Positions 17,492 to 51,034 are shown, counted from the first letter of the stretch. The stretch: 64,000 bases of DNA from an uncultured Pseudomonadota bacterium (GCA_949292335.1 CASEYY010000041.1:29963-93962), one strand, 5' to 3'. Notes: a model not told the origin generated them from the letters alone. Numbers and translations are program-made.

Positions 17492-17752
17492 ATGGCCAAT
17501 CATAAATCTGCTAAAAGCAGAATCGTTAGAAATAATAAAAGAGCCGTTATTAACGGTGCTCGCAGAAGTCGCGTTCGTACCTTTATTAAAAAGGTTGAGG
17601 CTGCGATTGTTGCCGGTGATAAAGAGTTGGCTAACAGCTCTTTCAAAATCGCCGAATCCGAAATGATGAAAGCCGTCAGAAAAGGCGTGTTCAAAATGAA
17701 TACTGCCGCTCGTAAGGTTTCTCGTCTTTCCCAAAAAATTAAAGCCCTTTAG
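17492..17752 (+). CDS. rpsT: 30S ribosomal protein S20
   Basis: MANHKSAKSR...NTAARKVSRL; start re-called to the ATG at 17492. Confidence 0.95.
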   Translation: MANHKSAKSRIVRNNKRAVINGARRSRVRTFIKKVEAAIVAGDKELANSSFKIAESEMMKAVRKGVFKMNTAARKVSRLSQKIKAL

Positions 17753-17775
17753 TTTTTTGTTTTTATTTTATTTTT

Positions 17776-17822
17776 AACGCAAGTCGGACTCTTATTTTAG
17801 AGGTTTTCGGCTTGCGTTTTTT
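17776..17822 (+). terminator. Rho-independent terminator after rpsT
   Basis: AACGCAAGTCGGA...TTCGGCTTGCGTT followed by a T run. Confidence 0.7.
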
Positions 17823-18202
17823 GCTCTAAAAGCCAGAGAATCTGGGCGACTCCTTAAAATATACCTGTCAAGAAATTTAATTGCAATGTTCAATAAAAGT
17901 TCTGTTGTTTTTATTTTTTTTTAACCTAATATCCAAATCACTTTGTTAGAGAATTTTGAAATTTATTTTTGAAATTTTTAGAATCTACTAAGCAGACAGT
18001 ATGGTCTATTTATTAGTTGTCAGCTTATACCTCGTGAATCCACTTGGGGTAAAACTTCTCTCCTAAATTTTATGCGGTCCGGGGAAGACTTCGTAAAAAA
18101 ACTCTGATGGGAGACAGATGGTTGTTTTACCTAAAATGTGCCTTGCGAATTTGTTGTAAACTGGCTAGGTTTTAATTTTTAAGAATGAATTGGGGAGTAA
18201 AA

Positions 18203-19648
18203 ATGGCCGAAGAAACAGTTGTTAATGACAAAACGGTTTTGGAACAATGGGGACAAATTTGTGACCAATTAAAAATTGAAATCGGCGAAACCGCTTTTGA
18301 CAGTTGGCTCAAGCCTTTAACAATAGGTTCTTTCTCTGACGGGACTATGAATATTTGTGTACCGACCAGATTTATGAGAAATTGGGTAATTACTAACTAT
18401 AGCGACAGAATCCACAAAATCTGGCAGAAAAAAAATCCGCAAATCCAAAATATTAATTTCGTTATTCAATCGGGACAAGATGTTATCTCTGCTAAGGGGC
18501 TGTACAATCCGACTTGCCGTTCTTTGTTGAAAAAAGTTACATCTTCTCCTTCTCCGCAAAATATATACCAATCAGGTATTAATTCGGTCATCGCTAATGC
18601 AAACGAATCATCGTTGAATGACTCTTTGTCGGTGCCTTTGAATCCACAATATACTTTTGACAATTTTGTAGTCGGAAAAACCAATGAGTTTGCTTATGCA
18701 GCAGCTCGTAAGGTTGCAGAATCGAGAAATATTTCTTTCAACCCGCTGTTCTTATACTCAGGTGTCGGATTGGGAAAAACTCACCTCATGCACGCGATTG
18801 CATGGCATATCAAACAACAAGATCCGTCGCGTAATATCGTATATCTTTCGGCCGAAAAATTTATGTATAAGTTTGTTAGAGCCTTGCGTTATAAAGATAC
18901 TACCGCCTTTAAGGAACAATTCCGTTCGGTTGATGTATTGATGGTTGACGATGTACAATTTATGGGCGGCAAAGACACCACCCAAGAGGAATTTTTCTAT
19001 ACCTTTAACTCTCTTATTGAAGAAGGCAGACAAATCATTATTTCTGCCGATAAATCTCCGGCAGATTTGGAAGGAATCGAAGCCAGATTAAAATCCAGAT
19101 TGGGTTGCGGTTTGGTGGCTGATATTCATCCCACCGATTTTGATTTGAGAATGGGAATTTTGAACTCTAAAGCCAAACAACTCGGTTTGGAATTACCCCA
19201 AAAGGTTGCTGAATTTTTGGCTACCAAAATCACCTCAAACATCAGAGAATTGGAAGGGGCTTTGCGTAGAGTTATTGCTCACTCTCAGCTCTTGAGTAAT
19301 CACGAGATAACTCTGGATATGACCCAAGATATCTTGAAAGATATGCTCCGCTCTTTTGACAAGAGAACTACCATTGATGAAATCCAGAAAAAAGTTGCCG
19401 AGCACTTCAATATTTCGGTTAAAGAAATGCAGTCATCAAGAAGAGCTCGCACCGTTGCCAGACCTCGCCAAATTGCAATGTATCTGGCTAAGCAACTGAC
19501 TTCTCGTTCTTTGCCGGAAATCGGACGCAAGTTTGACCGTGACCACACTACGGTTATGCATGCCGTAAGAAAGGTTGAAGAGCTTATCATGGAAGATATG
19601 TCTTTGGCCGAAAATGTGGAAACTTTGCGAAGAGCTTTGGAAGCCTAA
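18203..19648 (+). CDS. dnaA: Chromosomal replication initiator DnaA
   Basis: YTFDNFVVG, NPLFLYSGVGLGKTHL, DDVQF, RDHTTVMHA; GGGGAG RBS favours the ATG at 18203. Confidence 0.98.
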   Translation: MAEETVVNDKTVLEQWGQICDQLKIEIGETAFDSWLKPLTIGSFSDGTMNICVPTRFMRNWVITNYSDRIHKIWQKKNPQIQNINFVIQSGQDVISAKGLYNPTCRSLLKKVTSSPSPQNIYQSGINSVIANANESSLNDSLSVPLNPQYTFDNFVVGKTNEFAYAAARKVAESRNISFNPLFLYSGVGLGKTHLMHAIAWHIKQQDPSRNIVYLSAEKFMYKFVRALRYKDTTAFKEQFRSVDVLMVDDVQFMGGKDTTQEEFFYTFNSLIEEGRQIIISADKSPADLEGIEARLKSRLGCGLVADIHPTDFDLRMGILNSKAKQLGLELPQKVAEFLATKITSNIRELEGALRRVIAHSQLLSNHEITLDMTQDILKDMLRSFDKRTTIDEIQKKVAEHFNISVKEMQSSRRARTVARPRQIAMYLAKQLTSRSLPEIGRKFDRDHTTVMHAVRKVEELIMEDMSLAENVETLRRALEA

Positions 19649-19758: not shown

Positions 19759-20877
19759 ATGAGATTTACTATTGAACGTGCTAATCTACTTAAAACTCTG
19801 AGCCATGTTCAGAGCATCGTGGAAAAAAGAAACACCATTCCGGTTCTCTCAAATGTAAGAATCGAAGCTTTGGGTGACGGTATAAGCTTTAAGGCTACCG
19901 ATATGGATACCGAAATCACCGAAATGGCTGATGCTAAAATTATCGAAACAGGTGCAACCACCGCTCCGGCTCATATGCTTTACGATATCGTACGCAAGCT
20001 TTCGGACGGATCACAGGTTGAGTTGATTTATCCTGATGATAAAGGCCAGCTTACAATATCTTCCGGTCGCTCCAAATTCTCGCTTTCAACCATTGCCGTA
20101 GAAGATTTTCCGGTTATTTCCGGTGATAAATTACCGACATCTTTTGTTATGGCCAAAGACGAATTAAAAGATGTTATTGACAGAACTCAATTCGCCGTTT
20201 CAACCGAAGAAACCAGATATTATTTAAATGGTTTGTTTGTTCATGCCAAAAAAGAAGGGGCTTCCGAAGTATTGCGTGTAGTTGCTACCGATGGTCACCG
20301 CTTGGCTTGCGTTGAAACTCCGCTACCTAAAGGTGCCGAAAACCTCAACGGTGTCATTATCCCAAGGAAAACCGTCGCCGAAATCAGAAAACTTATTGAC
20401 GATAACTCCGTGGAGAATGTTACGGTTGAAATATCGGAGAATAAGGTTCGCTTCTCAATTACCGATATTACTTTGACCTCTAAATTAATCGACGGTACTT
20501 ACCCCGATTACGAAAGAGTTATCCCGACCGATAATGATAAATCTTTGGAACTTAATGTTAAAGATTTGGCGGCCGCCGTTGACCGTGTATCGGTGGTAGC
20601 AGAAAGAACCAGAGCTATTAAAATGCTCACTCATCCAAACAAAATAACTATCGTAACTTCAAGTCCGGATTTGGGCAGTGCATCCGAGGATTTGGAAGCT
20701 AAATATGATGCCGAAGCTTTGGAAATCGGTTATAACTTCCGTTATCTCTTGGATATTTTGGCCGAAATTAAAGGCGATACCGTTAAAATTTCTTTTGCCG
20801 ACGCTTCTTCGCCTTCGGTTATCCATGATACATCGGATGCTAGTGCAATCTATGTTTTAATGCCAATGAGAGTATAA
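19759..20877 (+). CDS. dnaN: DNA polymerase III beta sliding clamp
   Basis: VEKRNTIPVLSN, STEETRYYLNG, ATDGHRLA, VLMPMRV. Confidence 0.98.
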   Translation: MRFTIERANLLKTLSHVQSIVEKRNTIPVLSNVRIEALGDGISFKATDMDTEITEMADAKIIETGATTAPAHMLYDIVRKLSDGSQVELIYPDDKGQLTISSGRSKFSLSTIAVEDFPVISGDKLPTSFVMAKDELKDVIDRTQFAVSTEETRYYLNGLFVHAKKEGASEVLRVVATDGHRLACVETPLPKGAENLNGVIIPRKTVAEIRKLIDDNSVENVTVEISENKVRFSITDITLTSKLIDGTYPDYERVIPTDNDKSLELNVKDLAAAVDRVSVVAERTRAIKMLTHPNKITIVTSSPDLGSASEDLEAKYDAEALEIGYNFRYLLDILAEIKGDTVKISFADASSPSVIHDTSDASAIYVLMPMRV

Positions 20878-22107
20878 ATGAATCAACTCGCATATAGTTT
20901 GGCCAGTTTAACTAAGTTAAAGTCAGGTGTAAAACGCCTGACTTTAACTGACTTTAGAAACTACCAATCTTTGCGTATTGAAGCCGAAATCGCTCCCATT
21001 GTTATATATGGCGAAAACGGAAGCGGTAAAACCAATATTTTGGAGGCAATCTCTTTTCTAACTCCGGGAAGAGGTCTCAGAGCTGCCAGACTGGCTGATA
21101 TAAAAAGATTTATTCCCCAAATTGCCGCCTCAAACGAAATATCTTTTATCTCTCCGCTTAATTGGGCGGTGGCCGCCGATATTTATTTGAACGACGAAGT
21201 AGTCAACATTGCTACGGCAGTCGAAAAGTCTAATCGCGAAACATCAGATGACTTTGAGAGTACAACTTCTTTTGAAAGAAGAATTGTTAAAATAAATGAG
21301 CAAAAAGCATCTTCGCAAGCCGAGTTGGGAAAATATTTTGCGGCAAATTGGATAACTCCGCAAATGGACAGGTTATTCAGGGGTGGAAGCCAACCCAGAA
21401 GAGCCTTTCTAGACAGGCTGGTATATGCCTTTGATTTTGAACATGGCAAAAGAACCGCAAATTTTGAACACTTGTATCGTGAGTGGTTTCGCCTGATAAA
21501 GTCAGGAAAATCGGACAATATCTGGCTTGATTCTCTAGAAGAAAAAATGGCCGCGGAAGGAGTTGCCATCGCAGCGGCCAGAAAAGAGCAAATTACCAGA
21601 CTTAACGCCTTTATCGAAAATGAGCCTGATGATGTATTTCCTTCGGTAAAGATGGAGCTTTGCGGTATCATCGAAAACGCTTTGGATAAAAAAGCCGCCG
21701 TGGAAGTTGAATTTGACTATAAAAACCTGATAGCCAAACAACGATATAAAGCAATGGAAAATGAATCTCCGGACGGCGTTAACAAAACCGATTTTAAGGT
21801 CTTCTTTAAAAAGAAAGGTATGCCTGCCGAGTTATGCTCTACCGGCGAACAGAAATCATTGCTTATCAGCATTATTTTAGCCCAAACCAAATGCCAGACC
21901 TTGCACCAAGGATTTGCTCCGGTTATGTTGCTTGATGAAGTTGCGGCTCACCTTGATGATATAAAAAAAGAGGCTTTACTGAAAAAAATTAAAGATTTGG
22001 GTATTCAAGCTTGGATTACCACTACCAATCCGGAAATTTTTGCTTCCATTAAAAATGACGCACAGTTCTTTTGCCTAAAAAATAATAAGCTGCTGCAAAC
22101 AGATTAA
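20878..22107 (+). CDS. recF: DNA replication/repair protein RecF
   Basis: FRNY, GENGSGKTNILEA, STGEQK, LLDEVAAHLD. Confidence 0.95.
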   Translation: MNQLAYSLASLTKLKSGVKRLTLTDFRNYQSLRIEAEIAPIVIYGENGSGKTNILEAISFLTPGRGLRAARLADIKRFIPQIAASNEISFISPLNWAVAADIYLNDEVVNIATAVEKSNRETSDDFESTTSFERRIVKINEQKASSQAELGKYFAANWITPQMDRLFRGGSQPRRAFLDRLVYAFDFEHGKRTANFEHLYREWFRLIKSGKSDNIWLDSLEEKMAAEGVAIAAARKEQITRLNAFIENEPDDVFPSVKMELCGIIENALDKKAAVEVEFDYKNLIAKQRYKAMENESPDGVNKTDFKVFFKKKGMPAELCSTGEQKSLLISIILAQTKCQTLHQGFAPVMLLDEVAAHLDDIKKEALLKKIKDLGIQAWITTTNPEIFASIKNDAQFFCLKNNKLLQTD

Positions 22108-22133
22108 AATAAAAAAATAATCATCATAAAAAC

Positions 22134-22243
22134 GAATCGCTGCAACGATTTGCGGAGAATCGTCGGTTTTGTTTGCGGGAATCGGTAATTTTTTGTTAAG
22201 CATTGTTAAATAGAATCGACCATGTAATACTGATTCGCGATTC
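22134..22243 (+). promoter_or_regulatory. GANTC cluster (6 sites) and CtrA-like promoter upstream of autotransporter 1
   Basis: GANTC at 22134, 22157, 22179, 22213, 22232, 22239; GTAA-N7-TTAA (22185-22199)-N11-TAGAAT. Confidence 0.7.
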
Positions 22244-22286
22244 TGTTTACGGTGTGACTTTTATGTTGGTTGTTGAAAAAAAATAT

Positions 22287-25200
22287 ATGCTTTTTACAAG
22301 CCGGGCTTTGGCAACATTACTGTTGCTTTACGGAAGCTCCGCTTTGGCCGTTGAGGAAAGCAAAGATGTTTCCTCAGGTGAAACCGTAAACGACTTAACC
22401 ATTTCTACCGACGATACGGCCGACTACGCAATACTCAATGTAAACAGCGGGGGTACGGCTCAAAACACTACCGTAAGTACCGATGGTGTTATGTATGTGG
22501 CCGGTTCGGCAACGCAAATAACCGTAAACAACCAAGGTGCTGTTGGAGTACAATCCGGCGGAATTGCAAATGACATTTCCTTAGATGAAGGATACTTGAA
22601 TGTTTCTGGTAGCGGCTCGGCGACCAATGTCACAGCTACCAACAATAGTACTATCGATGCTTCTGAAAGCGGAGCTAATATATCCGGTTTAACGATGGAT
22701 TCTTCAAGCAATTTCTATTTTTCGACCAATATTGAATTGTCTGCGGCAACTCTTGACGGTAGTGATATGGGAAGCATAAGTGCCAGTACAGCTACAGATT
22801 TGGTCATCAATAAAGGATCAAACCTTGAAGTAGACAGCGGCGGGTCTGCTAACAACACGACCGTCAACGGCGGAAGTCTTGATGTTATAAATGGTGCCTT
22901 AATTACCGACACCACGGTAAATAGCGGCGGCACGGTAAATGTTACCTCGGGCTCGGCCGATACGATTACGGTGACCGAAAGCGGAACCGTCAATGTTGAC
23001 AGCTCCTCTACCGTAACCGATGTTACTTTAACCGGAACCGATAGCGATAATCTGGCAGTTATCAATATTAACGGAGGAACCGCACAGAGTACTACCCTTA
23101 ACCAATTTAGCGAGATGAATGTAAACTCCGGCTTGGCCGAACAAACTTCCGTCGGAAATAATGCCGTTATCAATGTCAACGGAGGAACGGCAAATAATAC
23201 AACCATACAAAGCGGCGGAACCATTAATGCTACTGCCGCCGGAGTAACCATATCAGATGTTACACTGGAAGACGGAAGTATATTTAATTTTTCAACCGAC
23301 GTTTATATCACAGATGTAAAAGCCGCCGACGGCTCGGTCACGGGTGCAACAGTCGAAAATAATACAGCTTCCGGATTTAATATTACCGATGGTTCAAACT
23401 TAACGGCAAATGCAGGCGGAACTATTACAAATTCCACGGTCAGCGGGGGAACGGCAACCGTGGAAAATAACGGTACCATTATTGATACGACTTTCGAAAA
23501 CGGAGGCACCTTGGTAGCAAATCAAGCAGGTGCTCAAGTGGGAAACGGTGTTGTAATTGACACTGATACCGGTGCCGGTTTTAATTTGTCGACCTCGGCT
23601 ACGGTTAATGGCTTAACTTATGGGACACAAACCATAAATATTACCGATAATTCAACTTCTGATTTTGACATCTTAGCGGGATCGACACTGGCTGTTGACA
23701 ATGCCGGCACTGCTTCAAATATTAATGTTAACGGTGGCACACTTAATGTAAATTCCGGCGGAACCACAAATACCATAACCGTCAATTCGGGACAAATGAA
23801 TATTGATGCCGCTGCGGCTTACAATACCGTAATCAACAATTCTGCCGTCGTTGCCGCAACCGGCAATTCTAGCTTATCTGATACAAATATTAATTCCGGC
23901 GGAACACTAAACATTAGTTCAGGTACTGCGGCAAACACACTATACATCGGAAACGGCGGAGTATTGAATGTCAATCAAGACGCAACGGCAAATGATATTA
24001 ATGTGAGCGGAACGGCAAATATTAACAACGGAGGATTCGCTTCGGATGTTACGATTAATAATGCCGGTATTTTGAATGTTGCGAATGGGGCAACAGCCTC
24101 AACGGTCACGACCAACAATGGCGGTATCCTTGTTACATCGGCAGGTGCCACCGTTGATAATCTTACCGCTAATGCAAATTCCATACTCAATTTGGGCACC
24201 GGAACAATACTCAAAAATGCTTTGGTAATCGACAAAGATGCAAATACCGCCGGTTCATCTCTTGACTTCGGCAATTTGTTCGGAACCGGTACACAGCTTA
24301 CTTCTTTAACCTTAACCAATGGCGTAAATGAGGCTTTCGGCGGAGAACTTACCAGCCAAGCCGCAACAGACACCTCTTTAACCCTTTCCAACGGAAATTA
24401 TATTATTTCCGATAATGGCCAGAACGGCACCGTGCAAGTGAGCGGATGGAACAATGTTACTCTTGCAGAAGCAACCGTAAGATTGGAATCCGATGTTACC
24501 TTAAACGGAACAGAACAGAACTTTATTATTAATAACGGAGCAACCCTTGATGTGTCCGGAACTTTAGGAAATGTCATAAATGCTTCAATCAACGGTAACT
24601 TGGTTAATAACGGTACGGTTGATTTTAGTTTAACTTCCGACGGAAGTGCAAATGATATTCTTAACATATCCGGAAATCTTACCGGTGCTACCGGTTCAAA
24701 TATTGTAATGAACATAAACACCTTGGCAAATTCTTCCGACAAACTGGTTGTTGGGGGGCAGGTGTCAGGTTCTAACAGTATTTATTTTAAGACATCTTCT
24801 ACCGCTTTGCCATCTGCAAACATCCTTTTCGCCGAAGCTACCGGCGGAATGGCCGATGCTTTCAGTATCTGGAGAGTGGAAGGGTCTCCTTATGCTTGGG
24901 ATGTATTATTTGAAAATAATAAATGGTATGCTTATGTCACAAACGGCAATCAACCGGATGTCGTGCCGGAGATGGCTGCTTATTATGGATTAATTGATAA
25001 TATGTTTATGCAGACTACCAACTTAGGAGCAAATTTACGGAACCTGATGACAGAAAGTTCGTTCCGTAAGGCTCCTTGTAGGGTTCCTAATAATCTTAAA
25101 TACACCAACCGTATTTGTTATAGCAATCGTCCAGTCCTTTCGGGTTGGTTCGCTCCGGTATATAGTTCGGCCGAGGTAAAATCTCCGTATAATTATGAAG

Positions 25201-25925
25201 CCTCTCTATATGGGGCTGACGGCGGACTGGATATACTGGGTGACGGAAATACCAAATTCGGTATTATGGCTTCCTATCGCAACGGTTCTTATAATTTTGA
25301 CGATAACGGTACTAATTACGCTATTACAAATTCTGCCGAAACAACTCTTAACTCTTATATGGGCGGTATTTACATAAGACACGATAGTAATTATCTGTCT
25401 TTGATTGCCGCAGCTTATGCCGGTAAAGTTGATGCCGATATCTCTACCGATGACAGGGTCAGTGCCGATACATCCGCTACCGTGACCGGTGCAACCCTTG
25501 ATGTTAATTATATTTGGCAAAACATCAGCGGATTCCGCATTGAACCGGGGGTTAGAATTTCTTATACTAGGTTAGCGGTTGATGATCTTAACGATAATGC
25601 CGGAAAATCCGTTGACTTTGGTAACAGCTCAAGAATTGAAGCCGAAGCCGGAATTAAATTTGCTCAAAGATGGGAATTCCGCGACGCAAAGGCCGAGATT
25701 TTCTTTAGACCGGCAATCTTGCAAACCATAAATGACGGTAATGATTTTGAGCTGATTATCGATAGATATTTCGAATCTCTGGAAGATCGCACCCTTACCA
25801 GACTTGAACTGGGTACTTCTTTTGATATGCTTGGTAACTGGAGTGCGGCAATGTCGGGAGCTTACACCTTTGATTCCGACTACAGCGATATCTCCGCTAA
25901 ATTAAGCCTGCAGTATAATTTCTAG
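22287..25925 (+). CDS. AIDA-I/Ag43-like autotransporter adhesin 1
   Basis: Signal peptide MLFTSRALATLLLLYGSSALA (alternative start 22263); many TTVNxGG beta-helix repeats; C-terminal beta-barrel ending LQYNF. Confidence 0.85.
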   Translation: MLFTSRALATLLLLYGSSALAVEESKDVSSGETVNDLTISTDDTADYAILNVNSGGTAQNTTVSTDGVMYVAGSATQITVNNQGAVGVQSGGIANDISLDEGYLNVSGSGSATNVTATNNSTIDASESGANISGLTMDSSSNFYFSTNIELSAATLDGSDMGSISASTATDLVINKGSNLEVDSGGSANNTTVNGGSLDVINGALITDTTVNSGGTVNVTSGSADTITVTESGTVNVDSSSTVTDVTLTGTDSDNLAVININGGTAQSTTLNQFSEMNVNSGLAEQTSVGNNAVINVNGGTANNTTIQSGGTINATAAGVTISDVTLEDGSIFNFSTDVYITDVKAADGSVTGATVENNTASGFNITDGSNLTANAGGTITNSTVSGGTATVENNGTIIDTTFENGGTLVANQAGAQVGNGVVIDTDTGAGFNLSTSATVNGLTYGTQTINITDNSTSDFDILAGSTLAVDNAGTASNINVNGGTLNVNSGGTTNTITVNSGQMNIDAAAAYNTVINNSAVVAATGNSSLSDTNINSGGTLNISSGTAANTLYIGNGGVLNVNQDATANDINVSGTANINNGGFASDVTINNAGILNVANGATASTVTTNNGGILVTSAGATVDNLTANANSILNLGTGTILKNALVIDKDANTAGSSLDFGNLFGTGTQLTSLTLTNGVNEAFGGELTSQAATDTSLTLSNGNYIISDNGQNGTVQVSGWNNVTLAEATVRLESDVTLNGTEQNFIINNGATLDVSGTLGNVINASINGNLVNNGTVDFSLTSDGSANDILNISGNLTGATGSNIVMNINTLANSSDKLVVGGQVSGSNSIYFKTSSTALPSANILFAEATGGMADAFSIWRVEGSPYAWDVLFENNKWYAYVTNGNQPDVVPEMAAYYGLIDNMFMQTTNLGANLRNLMTESSFRKAPCRVPNNLKYTNRICYSNRPVLSGWFAPVYSSAEVKSPYNYEASLYGADGGLDILGDGNTKFGIMASYRNGSYNFDDNGTNYAITNSAETTLNSYMGGIYIRHDSNYLSLIAAAYAGKVDADISTDDRVSADTSATVTGATLDVNYIWQNISGFRIEPGVRISYTRLAVDDLNDNAGKSVDFGNSSRIEAEAGIKFAQRWEFRDAKAEIFFRPAILQTINDGNDFELIIDRYFESLEDRTLTRLELGTSFDMLGNWSAAMSGAYTFDSDYSDISAKLSLQYNF

Positions 25926-28473: not shown

Positions 28474-29397
28474 GTGGCTAAGCTTAAAGCTCCCAGAAAT
28501 AAAACTCTTTCTTTAAGCCCTGCGGAAACTAATCTTCTGCTTAAAAATGCCGTTAAGCTAAAAAACAAAGCTAATTTTGAAGGGGTAGAAAATCGCATCA
28601 TTTGGCAAGACGCCTTTAAGGCTATAGATTTGTTACCGGACAAATGTGTAGATTTGGTGGTTACCGACCCGCCTTATAATCTGACTAAAAACTTTGGTTC
28701 ATCAACTTTTCGTGAGATGAAAAATGATGAGTATTTGTCTTGGTTGGATAAGTGGCTAAAAAAGTTATCCAGAATCCTAAAAGATGATGCTTCTTTGTAT
28801 ATTTGTGCCGACTGGAAAACTTCGATTGCCGTGCCTTATGTCGCCGGAAAATATTTTGTTTTGCAAAATCGTATTTCTTGGGAACGCGAAAAGGGTCGCG
28901 GGGCAAAAAATAATTGGAAAAACTGCCTTGAAGATATTTGGTTCTTTACCAAGAGCAAAAATTACAAATTTAATCTCGATAAAGTTAAAATCTTAAGAAA
29001 AGTTATTGCTCCGTATCGCAATGAGGAAGGTAGTCCAAAAGATTGGTTCTCCCAAGGAAACGAAAAAATGCGACTTACTCATCCTTCTAACATTTGGACC
29101 GATATATCGGTGCCGTTTTGGTCAATGAGCGAAAATACCCAACACCCAACTCAGAAGCCCGAAAAACTTATTGCGAAACTTATTTTGGCCTCCTCCGATG
29201 AAGGCGATGTCGTCTTTGATCCGTTTGTAGGCTCGGGAACCACCGCCGTGGTGGCAAAAAAATTAAACCGCAAATTTATTGCCATCGAAAAGGAAAAAGA
29301 ATATGTCGCTCTTACTTTGAAAAGACTCGAATTGGCCGAAGAAAACCAGCAAATTCAGGGCTTTGAAAACGGCGTCTTCAGGCCGCGAAACGGTTGA
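28474..29397 (+). CDS. Orphan beta-class N4/N6 DNA methyltransferase
   Basis: DPPY precedes HPTQKP and DPFVGSGTT; no adjacent endonuclease. Confidence 0.9.
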   Translation: MAKLKAPRNKTLSLSPAETNLLLKNAVKLKNKANFEGVENRIIWQDAFKAIDLLPDKCVDLVVTDPPYNLTKNFGSSTFREMKNDEYLSWLDKWLKKLSRILKDDASLYICADWKTSIAVPYVAGKYFVLQNRISWEREKGRGAKNNWKNCLEDIWFFTKSKNYKFNLDKVKILRKVIAPYRNEEGSPKDWFSQGNEKMRLTHPSNIWTDISVPFWSMSENTQHPTQKPEKLIAKLILASSDEGDVVFDPFVGSGTTAVVAKKLNRKFIAIEKEKEYVALTLKRLELAEENQQIQGFENGVFRPRNG

Positions 29398-47805: not shown

Positions 47806-48399
47806 ATGGCAGGAAAAGATATTGAAGTATTGATAAAACAAATTGCAAAACTACCTTCTCTCGGCTCTCGTTCGGCCAGAAGGATTGTTTTGCACCTCTT
47901 GAATAAACGAGAGACCGCTTTTGAACCTTTGATTGCCGCATTAAACAATGTAGCTCAAAATATTAAAACCTGCGAAATCTGCGGAAATTTTGATACCGTA
48001 AGTCCCTGCCCGATTTGTTCGTCATCCAACCGCGATAATTCGATTATTTGTGTGGTACGTGATGTTGCTGATTTGTGGGCAATGGAAAGGGTTTCCCTTT
48101 TTAAGGGAAAATATCATGTCTTGGGCGGCGTTTTATCGGCCATGGAAGGCATTGTTCCGGAAGACTTGAATATCGATAGCTTGGAAAAAAGAGTAGCCTC
48201 CGGAGAGGTGAAAGAGCTGCTCTTGGCATTACCTGCAACCATCGACGGACAAATTACTTCTCATTATCTGTTCTCTAAATTCAAAACTTATGACCTTAAA
48301 ATCACTACCTTGGCACAAGGTATTCCTATGGGAGCTGAGCTTGACTATATGGATGAGGGAACAATTCAGTTGGCTCTCAATTCCAGAAAAGTCTTATAA
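47806..48399 (+). CDS. recR: Recombination protein RecR
   Basis: LPSLGSRSA, CEIC...CPIC, YHVLGG, G.ELDYMDEGT. Confidence 0.95.
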   Translation: MAGKDIEVLIKQIAKLPSLGSRSARRIVLHLLNKRETAFEPLIAALNNVAQNIKTCEICGNFDTVSPCPICSSSNRDNSIICVVRDVADLWAMERVSLFKGKYHVLGGVLSAMEGIVPEDLNIDSLEKRVASGEVKELLLALPATIDGQITSHYLFSKFKTYDLKITTLAQGIPMGAELDYMDEGTIQLALNSRKVL

Positions 48400-48421
48400 A
48401 ATACCTTTTTCAAACTAAAAG

Positions 48422-48521
48422 GAATCGACTTTTTTGGACTCCGCGAATCATAAAGATGAATCATAAATATTTTGTTAATATTTTTTTCCTAGAATCGACT
48501 CATAAGCGATTCGGAGGATTC
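48422..48521 (+). promoter_or_regulatory. GANTC cluster (8 sites) and CtrA-like promoter upstream of autotransporter 2
   Basis: GANTC at 48422, 48437, 48445, 48458, 48492, 48497, 48508, 48517; TAAA-N7-TTAA (48464-48478)-N11-TAGAAT. Confidence 0.75.
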
Positions 48522-48526
48522 TTGTT

Positions 48527-51034
48527 ATGATGTCTAAAAAAAGTTCGTTATTCCTTTTAACCACAACCTTTTTTAGCTTGTGTTCAACAAGTGTTTTGGC
48601 TGACAACTATACTTCGGGAACATATGATGATTATATCGTACATACCGGATATCCTCAACTTGGTATAGCTCAAGATGCAACTGCCGATGGTACTATCGTT
48701 AATTCCGGCGGTAATTTTTCGGTTTTTGATAACGGTCATGTTACCAATACAACTGTCAATCAAGGCGGTAATTTCTATGTGGCTAATAATGGATTTTCTG
48801 ACGGAACAACCGTGAATGGCGGGGGATATGTCGAAGTGCAGGGTTCCGGAAATGCCAGTAATTTGACCGTGAGCGGGTCCGATATTACAAATACCGGACG
48901 AATTACCGTACAAGCCTTCGGAAATGTTGATAATGTAACTGTCAATGATAACGGTAATCTATATGTAAGCGGTGTCGCCACTGATGTAAACCAAAATGCC
49001 GGCTGGATTAATGTCCAGAACGGCGGCACAGTTAATAACCTTACTCTCAACAACGGCGAAACCTATTTGGAAACCGGCGGCATCATTAATAATATGGTGA
49101 TGTTCGACGGACAAGCCAGTGTTGCCAATAATTCTTCATTGTCGGGACTGACTATGACCGGCGGATCTATTACGTTGCATAATGCTTCAAATTTGGAAAA
49201 TGCTTCAATTTCTCAGGACGCCGTCGCGGATGTTTTCGGTAACGCAACTAATGTTACGGTAGATGACGGCGGTACATTAAATGGTAAGTTCGGCGCAACT
49301 ATTGAAAACTTAAATGCCGGAAACGGTGCTCTTATTGATTTGGAAAACGGCGTTGTCTTACAAGGAAATAATGTTTTCTCAAATCAGGCACAGATGGGCG
49401 GGTCTTTTGACTATATTACTTTTGCTCAAAATATTACCGGAAATATCACTTTGGAGGGCGGAATAAATTCTGCTTTGGGTATTAGTTTCGGAACTACTGC
49501 CGATGACACTTCCATTACCTTGAAAAATGGTGATTTTGACATTGGAACCGGAACCGTCGACATTATCGGTTTTGATAATATGTTTTTGTTGTCTGATAAC
49601 CCTGAAACTTATCCGACAACGGTTTTGTTGTCGGGTGATTTGGACTTAAATACCGACAGTAATGTAACTATAGGATCCGGCGTAACCGTTGAAACCGCCA
49701 GTCAGAACCTATCTATGACCGGTAATCTGTTTAATAACGGGGTGCTTGATATTTCTTCCACATCTGCCGATAATGATTTTACTATTGAAGGAAATTATAC
49801 TTCAAATAACGCTTTGTTGAAGCTAAATATTAATCCTGATGCAAGCTCCGCCGATGTCTTGACTATTGAAGGCGATGTACAAGGAACCACTAATGTTCAT
49901 TTGTTTGCAACTTCTAACAATATGAGTAAAGGTGAAATATTATTTGTTGACGCTCAAAATGATGATACTCACACCGCTTCTGATTTTAATATTTGGCGTG
50001 TGGACGGAAGCTCATATGCTTGGGATACCATCAATCGCGGAAATAAATGGTATGCTTATTCGACTAATGTGATGAGCGAAGTTGCCGCTTACGCCGGATT
50101 GTTAGAAAATGCTTTAATGCAAAATCATTCTTTGATTGCTGATTTGAGAAAAAATATTGCTCCAAATCATCTAAATGTCAGAACTTGTTTGCAAGAAACG
50201 CCTTTTTCAAAAGCTTTATATTGTAAGCCGGAAACCGCTCGCCTTTCTGCCTTTGTTTCTCCGGTATATTCAAAAGCAAATGTTGAATTCCCTTTGAGTT
50301 ACGAAGCAGAAATCAGCGGTGTCGATGCCGGCTTAGACCTTGTATCTGACGGAACTCACAAAGTTGGTATTATGGCTTCGGTAAGAGATGGTTCGTACGA
50401 ATTTAGCGGAAATTCCGATAAATATAACTTTAGCGGATCAGCAGAGACTTCTATCGACAGCTATTTGGCTGGAATATTCTACAGAATGGATAAAAATCAT
50501 CTGTCTACAGTGGCTGCTATATACGGAGAAGTGCTTAAAGCCGATTTCTCTTCAAATGATGGTGTAACCGCCGATACCGACGGACACATTGTCGGTGCAT
50601 CTCTTGATGTTTCGTATATTTTTAACGAAATTAAAGATATTTCAATCGAACCATCCTTGAGGATAACATACGAAATGCTTAATCTTGATGGCTTTACCGA
50701 TAATGCCGGAAAATCCGTGGATTATGACAAGCTGCACTATGTGGAAGTTGAGTTCGGTACCAAATTTGCTAAAAACATGATGTTTGATAATGGTGCTTTG
50801 GCTCAAATCTATTTCAAACCTTCTCTTATCCAAACTTTTAACTCGGTCAAAGATATACAACTCAGCGATGGTTTAGTCCTTGACGGAACTCAAAACCGTA
50901 CTTTAGGAAACTTAGAGATTGGTGCAAATTACCAGTTTAACACGGATTGGAGCTTTGGTGCTTTTGCTGATTATACCTTTGGTGACGAGTATAGCGAGTG
51001 GTCTGCATCACTAAACTTATTGTATCATTTCTGA
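48527..51034 (+). CDS. AIDA-I/Ag43-like autotransporter adhesin 2
   Basis: Signal peptide, TTVNxGG repeats, beta-barrel ending LLYHF; GGAGG RBS; paralog of autotransporter 1. Confidence 0.85.
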   Translation: MMSKKSSLFLLTTTFFSLCSTSVLADNYTSGTYDDYIVHTGYPQLGIAQDATADGTIVNSGGNFSVFDNGHVTNTTVNQGGNFYVANNGFSDGTTVNGGGYVEVQGSGNASNLTVSGSDITNTGRITVQAFGNVDNVTVNDNGNLYVSGVATDVNQNAGWINVQNGGTVNNLTLNNGETYLETGGIINNMVMFDGQASVANNSSLSGLTMTGGSITLHNASNLENASISQDAVADVFGNATNVTVDDGGTLNGKFGATIENLNAGNGALIDLENGVVLQGNNVFSNQAQMGGSFDYITFAQNITGNITLEGGINSALGISFGTTADDTSITLKNGDFDIGTGTVDIIGFDNMFLLSDNPETYPTTVLLSGDLDLNTDSNVTIGSGVTVETASQNLSMTGNLFNNGVLDISSTSADNDFTIEGNYTSNNALLKLNINPDASSADVLTIEGDVQGTTNVHLFATSNNMSKGEILFVDAQNDDTHTASDFNIWRVDGSSYAWDTINRGNKWYAYSTNVMSEVAAYAGLLENALMQNHSLIADLRKNIAPNHLNVRTCLQETPFSKALYCKPETARLSAFVSPVYSKANVEFPLSYEAEISGVDAGLDLVSDGTHKVGIMASVRDGSYEFSGNSDKYNFSGSAETSIDSYLAGIFYRMDKNHLSTVAAIYGEVLKADFSSNDGVTADTDGHIVGASLDVSYIFNEIKDISIEPSLRITYEMLNLDGFTDNAGKSVDYDKLHYVEVEFGTKFAKNMMFDNGALAQIYFKPSLIQTFNSVKDIQLSDGLVLDGTQNRTLGNLEIGANYQFNTDWSFGAFADYTFGDEYSEWSASLNLLYHF

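Follow-up and report, generated by a model that had tools for sequence, protein, structure and literature searches.

A conserved GANTC-rich candidate promoter module before adhesin genes and non-coding DNA in an uncultured gut bacterial lineage

Our analysis of a 64,000-nt stretch of DNA from an uncultured gut alphaproteobacterium (hereafter the window, in whose coordinates positions are given unless a contig or locus is named) indicates that a dense cluster of GANTC sites ahead of an autotransporter gene (autotransporter 1, AT1) is one instance of a module that recurs across the genus in single copy and is not tied to autotransporters as such. We tentatively favour reading this module as a methylation-sensing, replication-coupled promoter of the CcrM/GcrA (possibly CtrA) type. 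Methylation by CcrM, the cell-cycle DNA methylase that targets GANTC, has so far been known as a cell-cycle signal at promoters that carry a single site or two, from a few cultured models. What is new here is a compact array of 6-12 sites that has stayed together, despite gene rearrangements, in 29 species of a MucR-free, uncultured gut lineage; some of these species have it wired to surface adhesins, others to non-coding DNA.

Results

The cluster and the genes around it

The first-pass annotation of the window had drawn attention to six GANTC sites within 110 bp (22134-22243), and a recount of the positions bears this out. The sites start at 22134, 22157, 22179, 22213, 22232 and 22239, with spacings of 23, 22, 34, 19 and 7 bp, so that the steps of 23 and 22 bp reported for the first three sites are also correct. 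One site (at 22213) does overlap, as had been claimed, a -10-like TAGAAT at 22211-22216, and five of the six have the context GAATCG/CGATTC that the annotation assigned to five, the exception being site 5, TGATTCG. The features at this locus and at a second, related one are as follows.

18185-19648: dnaA, upstream of recF
19759-20877: dnaN, upstream of recF
20878-22107, plus strand: recF, last gene of dnaA-dnaN-recF; Pfam SMC_N/AAA_23; its stop precedes the first GANTC by 26 bp
22108-22262, plus strand: recF-AT1 intergenic region, 155 bp, containing the entire cluster
22134-22183, no strand assigned: module core, three GAATC at 22134, 22157 and 22179
22185-22199, plus strand: GTAA-N7-TTAA, between site 3 and the -10-like hexamer
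22211-22216, plus strand: -10-like TAGAAT, overlapping GANTC site 4 (22213-22217)
22232-22243, plus strand: GANTC sites 5 and 6, TGATTCG and CGATTCT, which fit YGAKTCK on the coding strand
22263-25925, plus strand: AT1, 1220 aa from the ATG at 22263; signal-peptide-like N-terminus, AIDA repeat, C-terminal beta-barrel
47806-48399, plus strand: recR, the gene 5' of the second cluster
48422-48521, no strand assigned: second GANTC cluster, 8 GANTC in 100 bp, the densest in the genome, between recR and AT2
48527-51034, plus strand: AT2, 835 aa, AIDA-type autotransporter

The AT1 and AT2 proteins are AIDA/Ag43-class autotransporters, with AIDA passenger repeats and a C-terminal beta-domain: PF16168 and PF03797 exceed their cut-offs in both (for AT1, AIDA PF16168 at E 4e-17 and Autotransporter PF03797 at E 9e-22). 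The two are paralogues, with 34% identity over 868 aligned positions (E 1e-122). The AT1 start codon is supported by a reading frame that is kept in the nearest relative, and contigs from two DNA runs gave no variant, indel or joint in the AT1 promoter. The neighbouring recF has orthologues that are 64-91% identical in 24 relatives of the genus, with a 46% match in one genome of another genus.

Both autotransporter genes carry a run of A in their first codons, an A8 tract at 22276-22283 in AT1 (between the in-frame ATGs at 22263 and 22287) and an A7 tract at 48536-48542 in AT2. These tracts encode signal-peptide lysines, and short tracts of this kind could in principle slip; no length variant of the A8 tract was seen in the one contig that covers it.

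Rarity of the cluster

The genome containing the window (G000; 1,475,206 bp in 49 contigs, 40.5% G+C, estimated completeness 100%) has 2684 GANTC sites, one per 550 bp; from its mononucleotide composition 5354 would be expected, one per 275 bp. GANTC is depleted two-fold in this genome relative to base composition. The earlier figure of one site per 250-300 bp is therefore sound as a composition estimate, but the true background is half as dense. The window itself holds 164 sites, against 206.9 +/- 13.3 in dinucleotide shuffles.

When site-anchored 110-bp intervals are ranked over the whole genome, the AT1 cluster with its six sites comes second; the top interval has eight, and the next have four, at five places. 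In 2000 random placements of the 2684 sites the genome-wide maximum per 110 bp was 3 in 185 trials, 4 in 1579, 5 in 230 and 6 in 6, and a maximum of 7 or 8 never occurred (0/2000). Under a Poisson model, 0.005 clusters with six or more sites would be expected in the whole genome. The annotation had allowed that most intergenic regions might be similarly dense. With a crude ORF call, GANTC density is 1/487 bp in intergenic and 1/558 bp in coding DNA, so that intergenic regions are generally unlike the AT1 cluster.

Several other GANTC-rich places have ordinary explanations, namely tRNA genes, a dispersed repeat on contig C15 that carries GAATC, and a tandem repeat at the end of contig C1. The C15 region (20486-20973) consists of six copies, between convergent genes, of a unit of about 45 bp ending in cccgaGAATCt, and is rich in GANTC through the repeat alone. 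On C1 (13733-13806) the richness comes from a 24-bp tandem repeat with GAATC.

The module across the genus

We searched 283 genomes of the order, G000 included, with the pattern GAATC-N17-19-GAATC-N15-18-GAATCGGTAA. Exactly one match was found in each of 29 of the 56 genomes of the genus (G000 among them) and none in the 227 genomes of 23 other genera; a reversed-pattern control gave no match in the 283 genomes. In a 12-species alignment the core GAATC sites are invariant together with their flanks AAAACGAATC, GAATCG and GAATCGGTAA, and the full invariant series reads AAAACGAATC, TTTG, GAATCG and GAATCGGTAA..TTAA, separated by spacers that vary in sequence and are fixed in length. RecF proteins are 74-91% identical in the seven relatives measured among these 12 species. 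We also considered whether the middle base could mark GANTC itself as the selected word, and dropped this argument, as the middle base varies little at homologous positions.

Apart from the three pattern-defining sites, the 29 modules contain 124 GANTC in 8555 bp (1/69 bp), while the rest of the same loci contains 153 in 78,982 bp (1/516 bp). It follows that selection maintains many GANTC sites around the core, regardless of what lies downstream.

What lies downstream varies. Eighteen of the 29 copies are placed after recF, and 13 of the 29, all of them recF-linked, are followed by an AT1/AT2-like match. Two more recF-linked copies precede an ORF of at least 477 aa that starts 68 bp on and has a weak AIDA match (E 0.005 and 0.006, below the cut-off). 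The remaining three of the 18 have no co-oriented gene; one of these (L137) retains a 58-bp remnant similar to AT1 coding sequence. The 11 copies that are not linked to recF, with 5-12 GANTC each, are followed by about 200-260 nt of non-coding DNA that is conserved within two subgroups of relatives. Past this stretch a convergent ORF is found in 10 of the 11 loci, the eleventh (L140) ending too soon; it is the 3' end of polA in the three loci tested by Pfam (L116, L134 and L142). In the one locus tested (L116), gyrB is the divergent gene upstream, and five other loci have a similar ORF layout. The description of the cluster as an autotransporter promoter thus stands in that it precedes AT1 and, in its second copy, AT2, but it does not hold throughout the genus, where 11 of 29 copies lie before non-coding DNA and three have no co-oriented gene.

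In the window, polA and gyrB are adjacent and separated by a 127-bp gap (265-391) without the module. The L116 module and its non-coding stretch lie exactly between polA and gyrB, and with the corresponding gap of G000 empty, this indicates that the element has moved or been lost within the genus.

The conserved non-coding stretch (L116:1588-1850, plus strand, with equivalents in L117, L119, L127, L130 and L141; a second subgroup comprises L133, L134, L139, L140 and L142) contains palindromes (TCTGCAGA and CAAAGCTTTG), and at its end, immediately ahead of the convergent polA stop, is a variable GC hairpin. A consensus fold over six relatives shows high sequence conservation, with double changes in 7 of 56 pairs, mostly in the terminal GC hairpin, on which we base no claim of structure, and Rfam at gathering thresholds gave no match in 14 module loci. 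The module may drive transcription of this stretch as a small RNA that is so far undescribed.

GANTC density and autotransporters in general

Do peaks of GANTC density sit upstream of autotransporters, as the annotation had proposed to look for? The two densest clusters of the genome do precede AT1 and AT2, but other autotransporters lack clusters. In the same genome the autotransporter gene on contig C4 has two GANTC in the 300 bp upstream and that on C31 has none; one on C42 was left uncounted, its promoter falling off the contig. Across the genus there are 30 loci with AIDA-type genes, of which six have no promoter inside the locus, leaving 24 that could be scored. Nine of these have 5-9 GANTC upstream, all nine being recF-linked, and 13 have 0-2. 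The automatic start codon is internal for three loci (L086, L089 and L095); for the latter two, the DNA actually upstream is that of L129 and L125, respectively, and both carry the module. Given the counts at the C4 and C31 genes and at the 13 sparse loci, dense GANTC is not a general property of autotransporter promoters.

Downstream of recR, only one of 29 relatives has the AT2 cassette, with seven GANTC, and the other 28 have 0-2. Downstream of recF, seven of 25 relatives have 5-9 GANTC in the first 250 bp, with an AT1-like match in five of the seven; the remaining 18 have a different adjoining gene and 0-3 GANTC.

Promoter anatomy

The distance from core site 3 to the GANTC within TAGAATC is 34 bp at both autotransporter genes (AT1, AT2) and 34-35 bp in the polA-linked copies; altogether 14 of 29 modules have a GANTC at +34/35 from core site 3. 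By eye, a hexamer that starts with TA and mostly ends in T (TAGAAT, TAGCCT, TAACCT) is present in nearly all 29 modules at a fixed 32 bp past site 3. Such a TAnnnT hexamer has the form to be expected of a putative -10 element. In the 15 copies with a long downstream ORF the start codon lies about 68-105 bp past the module. A scan for consensus sigma-70 promoters and terminators found nothing in 22000-22400 and two matches in 48300-48650, both inside the AT2 coding region.

The sites of the AT2 promoter fall at 0, +23, +36 and +70 from the first, against 0, +23, +45 and +79 for AT1, which is the same plan with the spacer between sites 2 and 3 shorter by 9 bp; TAGAATCGAC is found in the AT2 cluster 34 bp past the site equivalent to AT1 site 3. 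Judged by its sequence, the AT2 cluster is a diverged paralogue of the module.

CtrA boxes have the consensus TTAA-N7-TTAA(C) and overlap the -35 region in CtrA-activated promoters. The module resembles these promoters in that CtrA is encoded and that GTAA-N7-TTAA, whose TTAA lies outside our search pattern, is present in 29 of 29 modules, where it would be centred at about -31, extended to TTAAC in 11. It differs from them in its first half-site, which is GTAA in every copy, one mismatch from the consensus. Full TTAA-N7-TTAA boxes number 100 in about 153 kb of intergenic DNA; being common in AT-rich intergenic DNA, they are uninformative on their own.

Taking TAGAAT as the -10 element, we infer that AT1 transcription starts near 22223. 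With this start, the centres of the core sites would fall at about -87, -64 and -42 and that of the CtrA-like box at about -31, with TGATTCG at about +12 and CGATTCT at about +19, and site 4 would lie inside the -10 element. In the AT2 promoter the CGATTCG would be centred near +9. As regards helical phasing, 13 recurrent positions, pooled and chosen post hoc, have a best period of 10.9 bp (R 0.70), which was matched by 524 of 20,000 random sets, and neither AT1 alone nor AT2 alone has a 10.9-bp periodicity, so that we regard this as a weak hint of phasing.

Methylase and regulators

Could the sites be methylated at all? The annotation had left room for a genome with no GANTC methylase; a full-length predicted CcrM orthologue is in fact encoded. 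This protein of 364 aa, on contig C5, aligns end to end, C-terminal domain included, with Caulobacter CcrM 6PBD (E 1.2e-154, residues 11-361 on 14-364), and its best NCBIfam match is CcrM at 597 bits, below that model's strict cut-off of 830. GcrA is an intact 201-aa ORF (PF07750 at 121.7 bits), and CtrA, of the OmpR family, matches NCBIfam NF045991 at 402.8 bits against a cut-off of 350; the genome has five OmpR-type regulators. Among the 56 genomes of the genus, CcrM is found in 55 and GcrA in 51.

No match to MucR (PF05443) was found here or anywhere else among the 56 genus genomes, and the SeqA family (PF03925) gave no match. Of the three genes that the annotation had named as the ones to find, ccrM and gcrA are thus present and mucR is absent. 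Among the known candidates no competitor of the OxyR kind emerged either, MucR being absent from all 56 genomes and SeqA having no match; given the conserved flanks of the sites, a protein of another family may bind there.

The genome has three further N6_N4 methylase genes, one in the window and the others on contigs C7 and C40. The one in the window (28474-29397, plus strand; 307 aa, PF01555) lies 2.5 kb past AT1, and its best NCBIfam match is a YhdJ-like adenine methylase, below the cut-off.

Fit to GcrA boxes

GcrA recognises TGATTCG and, more broadly, YGAKTCK, according to the available text of Haakonsen et al. (PMC4647560). In that of Wu et al. (PMC9976885), active GcrA boxes lie at -20, at -30 or from +5 to +30 and are absent further away, and most GcrA promoters are single-box, PmipZ having two boxes at +4 and +12. 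YGAKTCK is fitted by five of six AT1 sites, against 26.8% of sites genome-wide (binomial p 0.006), by four of eight AT2 sites, by nine of 14 for the two together (p 0.004), and by 72 of the 124 extra sites of the 29 modules. Site 3 (CGATTCC) is invariant, yet it does not fit.

The sites placed at about -42, -64 and -87 would fall outside the range described by Wu et al. (PMC9976885, available text), so that GcrA alone fails to explain the array. With a start near 22223, the downstream pair together with the -10 site would fit the GcrA model of that paper, and the upstream array would need either another reader or a role in recruiting or holding CcrM.

Discussion

How could such a module work? 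We picture a promoter module of about 110 bp whose first part would be a phased upstream array of CcrM target sites, followed by a CtrA-box-like GTAA-N7-TTAA in the place of a -35 element, then by a TAnnnT -10 hexamer that itself contains GANTC, and last by one or two GcrA-box-like sites just past the presumed start. CcrM would methylate these sites once per cell cycle, and passage of the replication fork would leave them hemimethylated. This hemimethylated state would be read by the sigma-70 cofactor GcrA, perhaps with CtrA, so that the adhesin gene would be transcribed in step with replication and the cell cycle. If methylation does control the module, gut alphaproteobacteria would adhere according to their replication state, or in an epigenetically variable manner, and the module would provide a natural, portable reporter of CcrM/GcrA activity.

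The closest known relatives of such a promoter are PmipZ and PcsM of Caulobacter crescentus, described in the available texts of PMC4647560 and PMC9976885; in the module, too, GANTC sites in the YGAKTCK context would lie near the core promoter, in a genome that encodes CcrM and GcrA. The main box of PmipZ, TGAGTCG at +12, corresponds to the TGATTCG that the module would have at about +12 from its predicted start. Unlike the module, with its six to twelve sites, the Caulobacter GcrA/CcrM promoters so described have one or two, and their targets are cell-cycle genes rather than an adhesin gene or non-coding DNA.

The replication-coupled reading has to be weighed first against an operator array that is indifferent to methylation. 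Here an ordinary factor, for example one of the OmpR family, would read a longer GAATCG word, and GANTC would be its by-product. The conservation of the flanks AAAACGAATC, GGAATCGGTAA and TTTG beyond GANTC speaks for this, because it is expected of a sequence-specific protein that needs no methylation sensing; to these invariant flanks one can add GCGAATCG, the 22-23 bp spacing fixed in 12 species, the scant variation of the middle base at homologous positions, and the five OmpR-type regulators encoded. However, a by-product would hardly give, in a genome depleted two-fold in GANTC, the two densest clusters and, in the modules, 124 extra sites in 8555 bp. Moreover, GAATC and GATTC are mixed with GACTC and GAGTC, in both orientations and at lineage-specific positions, which fits selection on the degenerate CcrM word, and in a related element before the S10 operon GAGTC stands in place of the module's GAATC. 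We consider this alternative unlikely, though it deserves to be kept in mind.

In E. coli, expression of agn43 is switched by Dam methylation of clustered GATC sites in competition with OxyR, giving phase variation. By analogy, the annotation had read the AT1 cluster as a CcrM/GANTC switch: a protein bound to phased GANTC sites would block CcrM, methylation would block the protein, and the adhesin would vary in a heritable ON/OFF manner. The likeness to agn43 is real, in that both have clustered adenine-methylation sites at the promoter of a self-associating autotransporter of the AIDA/Ag43 class, here with many GANTC over and around the core promoter; the conservation of the sequence flanking the sites suggests that a protein binds there, and the weak phasing (period 10.9 bp, 524 of 20,000 random sets) points the same way. 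The differences are that agn43 has a constitutive Dam acting at GATC where the module has CcrM, restricted to part of the cell cycle in studied species, acting at GANTC, and that agn43 has OxyR as competitor, whereas none was identified here and the module also occurs without an adhesin gene.

There is also precedent for occlusion of GANTC in Alphaproteobacteria. In the available text of Ardissone et al. (PMC5172544), MucR shields GANTC sites from CcrM, for example four of them in Caulobacter P169, and CtrA boxes that overlap GANTC can shield them in a synthetic promoter. MucR-shielded GANTC promoters include S. meliloti SMa1635/SMa2245 (PMC5172544; bioRxiv 10.1101/2024.03.01.583015), and a nanopore study reports, in its available text, a MucR-shielded hypomethylated site beside the Brucella autotransporter gene BAB2_1107 (bioRxiv 10.1101/2024.03.01.583015). 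Like the module, these promoters as described there can hold several GANTC, and in one case adjoin an autotransporter adhesin gene; a DNA-binding protein competes with CcrM in them, as it would in the module on the switch reading. The module, for its part, belongs to a genus without MucR, and its array is denser and conserved as a unit. In the literature on CcrM and autotransporters or phase-variable adhesins, supplementary tables excepted, we found no dense GANTC array on an adhesin promoter. The annotation's remark that it knew of no such description therefore holds for dense-GANTC adhesin promoters, but shielding of GANTC from CcrM by MucR has the precedent just given (PMC5172544; bioRxiv 10.1101/2024.03.01.583015).

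Several observations weigh against the heritable switch. No occluder was identified, with MucR in none of 56 genus genomes and no SeqA, and the presence of the module before non-coding DNA in 11 species, and with nothing co-oriented in three, does not suggest an adhesin-specific switch. A 2026 review (PMC13076061) describes, in its available text, Dam switches as competition and CcrM control as replication timing, with CcrM active only briefly during the cell cycle of the species studied; such a limit favours deterministic timing over competition. As of the account in PMC5172544, no phase-variable promoter was then known in Alphaproteobacteria. We therefore think the switch quite unlikely as a whole, while parts of what the annotation proposed persist: CcrM, GcrA and CtrA are encoded and the sites are conserved, but the module is not adhesin-specific and no competitor was identified. 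A variant that does without MucR, in which a reader on a same-face GANTC array would compete with CcrM and render the adhesin bistable, the same device being reused in sister species for a small non-coding RNA, strikes us as slightly more doubtful again; if true, no phase-variable promoter would have been described in Alphaproteobacteria before it.

That the module is no promoter at all and serves as a replication origin or a chromosome-organising element is very improbable: it is a single copy in each of 29 genomes, sits among replication genes (beside recF or the 3' end of polA, with gyrB upstream confirmed in one locus), is rich in methylation sites as is the Caulobacter origin, which carries GANTC, and lacks a downstream protein gene in 14 of 29 copies, but neither 22100-22265 nor 48400-48527 contains a DnaA-box-like 9-mer (TTATCCACA-like, at most one mismatch), AT2 is preceded by a paralogous second copy at a distance of 26 kb, the downstream ORF begins at a fixed distance (about 68-105 bp) in 15 species, the -10-like hexamer is conserved, and the GC skew of the contig has no clear switch here. 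Origin placement from GC skew and gene strand over this 105-kb contig was noisy and not decisive.

Three other places in this genome have groups of GANTC sites. The 450 bp upstream of dnaA (17735-18184) contain five GANTC, none in a GcrA-box context, and no DnaA-box-like word with at most one mismatch was found in this interval. On contig C46 (7787-7821) four GANTC lie within 35 bp (GAGTC..GATTCGACTCgGATTC), just past a terminator-like hairpin; nrdD, the gene for anaerobic ribonucleotide reductase, follows about 370 bp further downstream. Between ftsH and the S10 ribosomal-protein operon (contig C9, 10344-10392) there are four GANTC in 49 bp, with the word TTGACCgGACTCaaacaGAGTCtGAGTC; over 37-45 nt this element shares 82-84% similarity with the module's upstream part as found in relatives, and from this similarity the same cis-element may also serve the ribosomal-protein operon.
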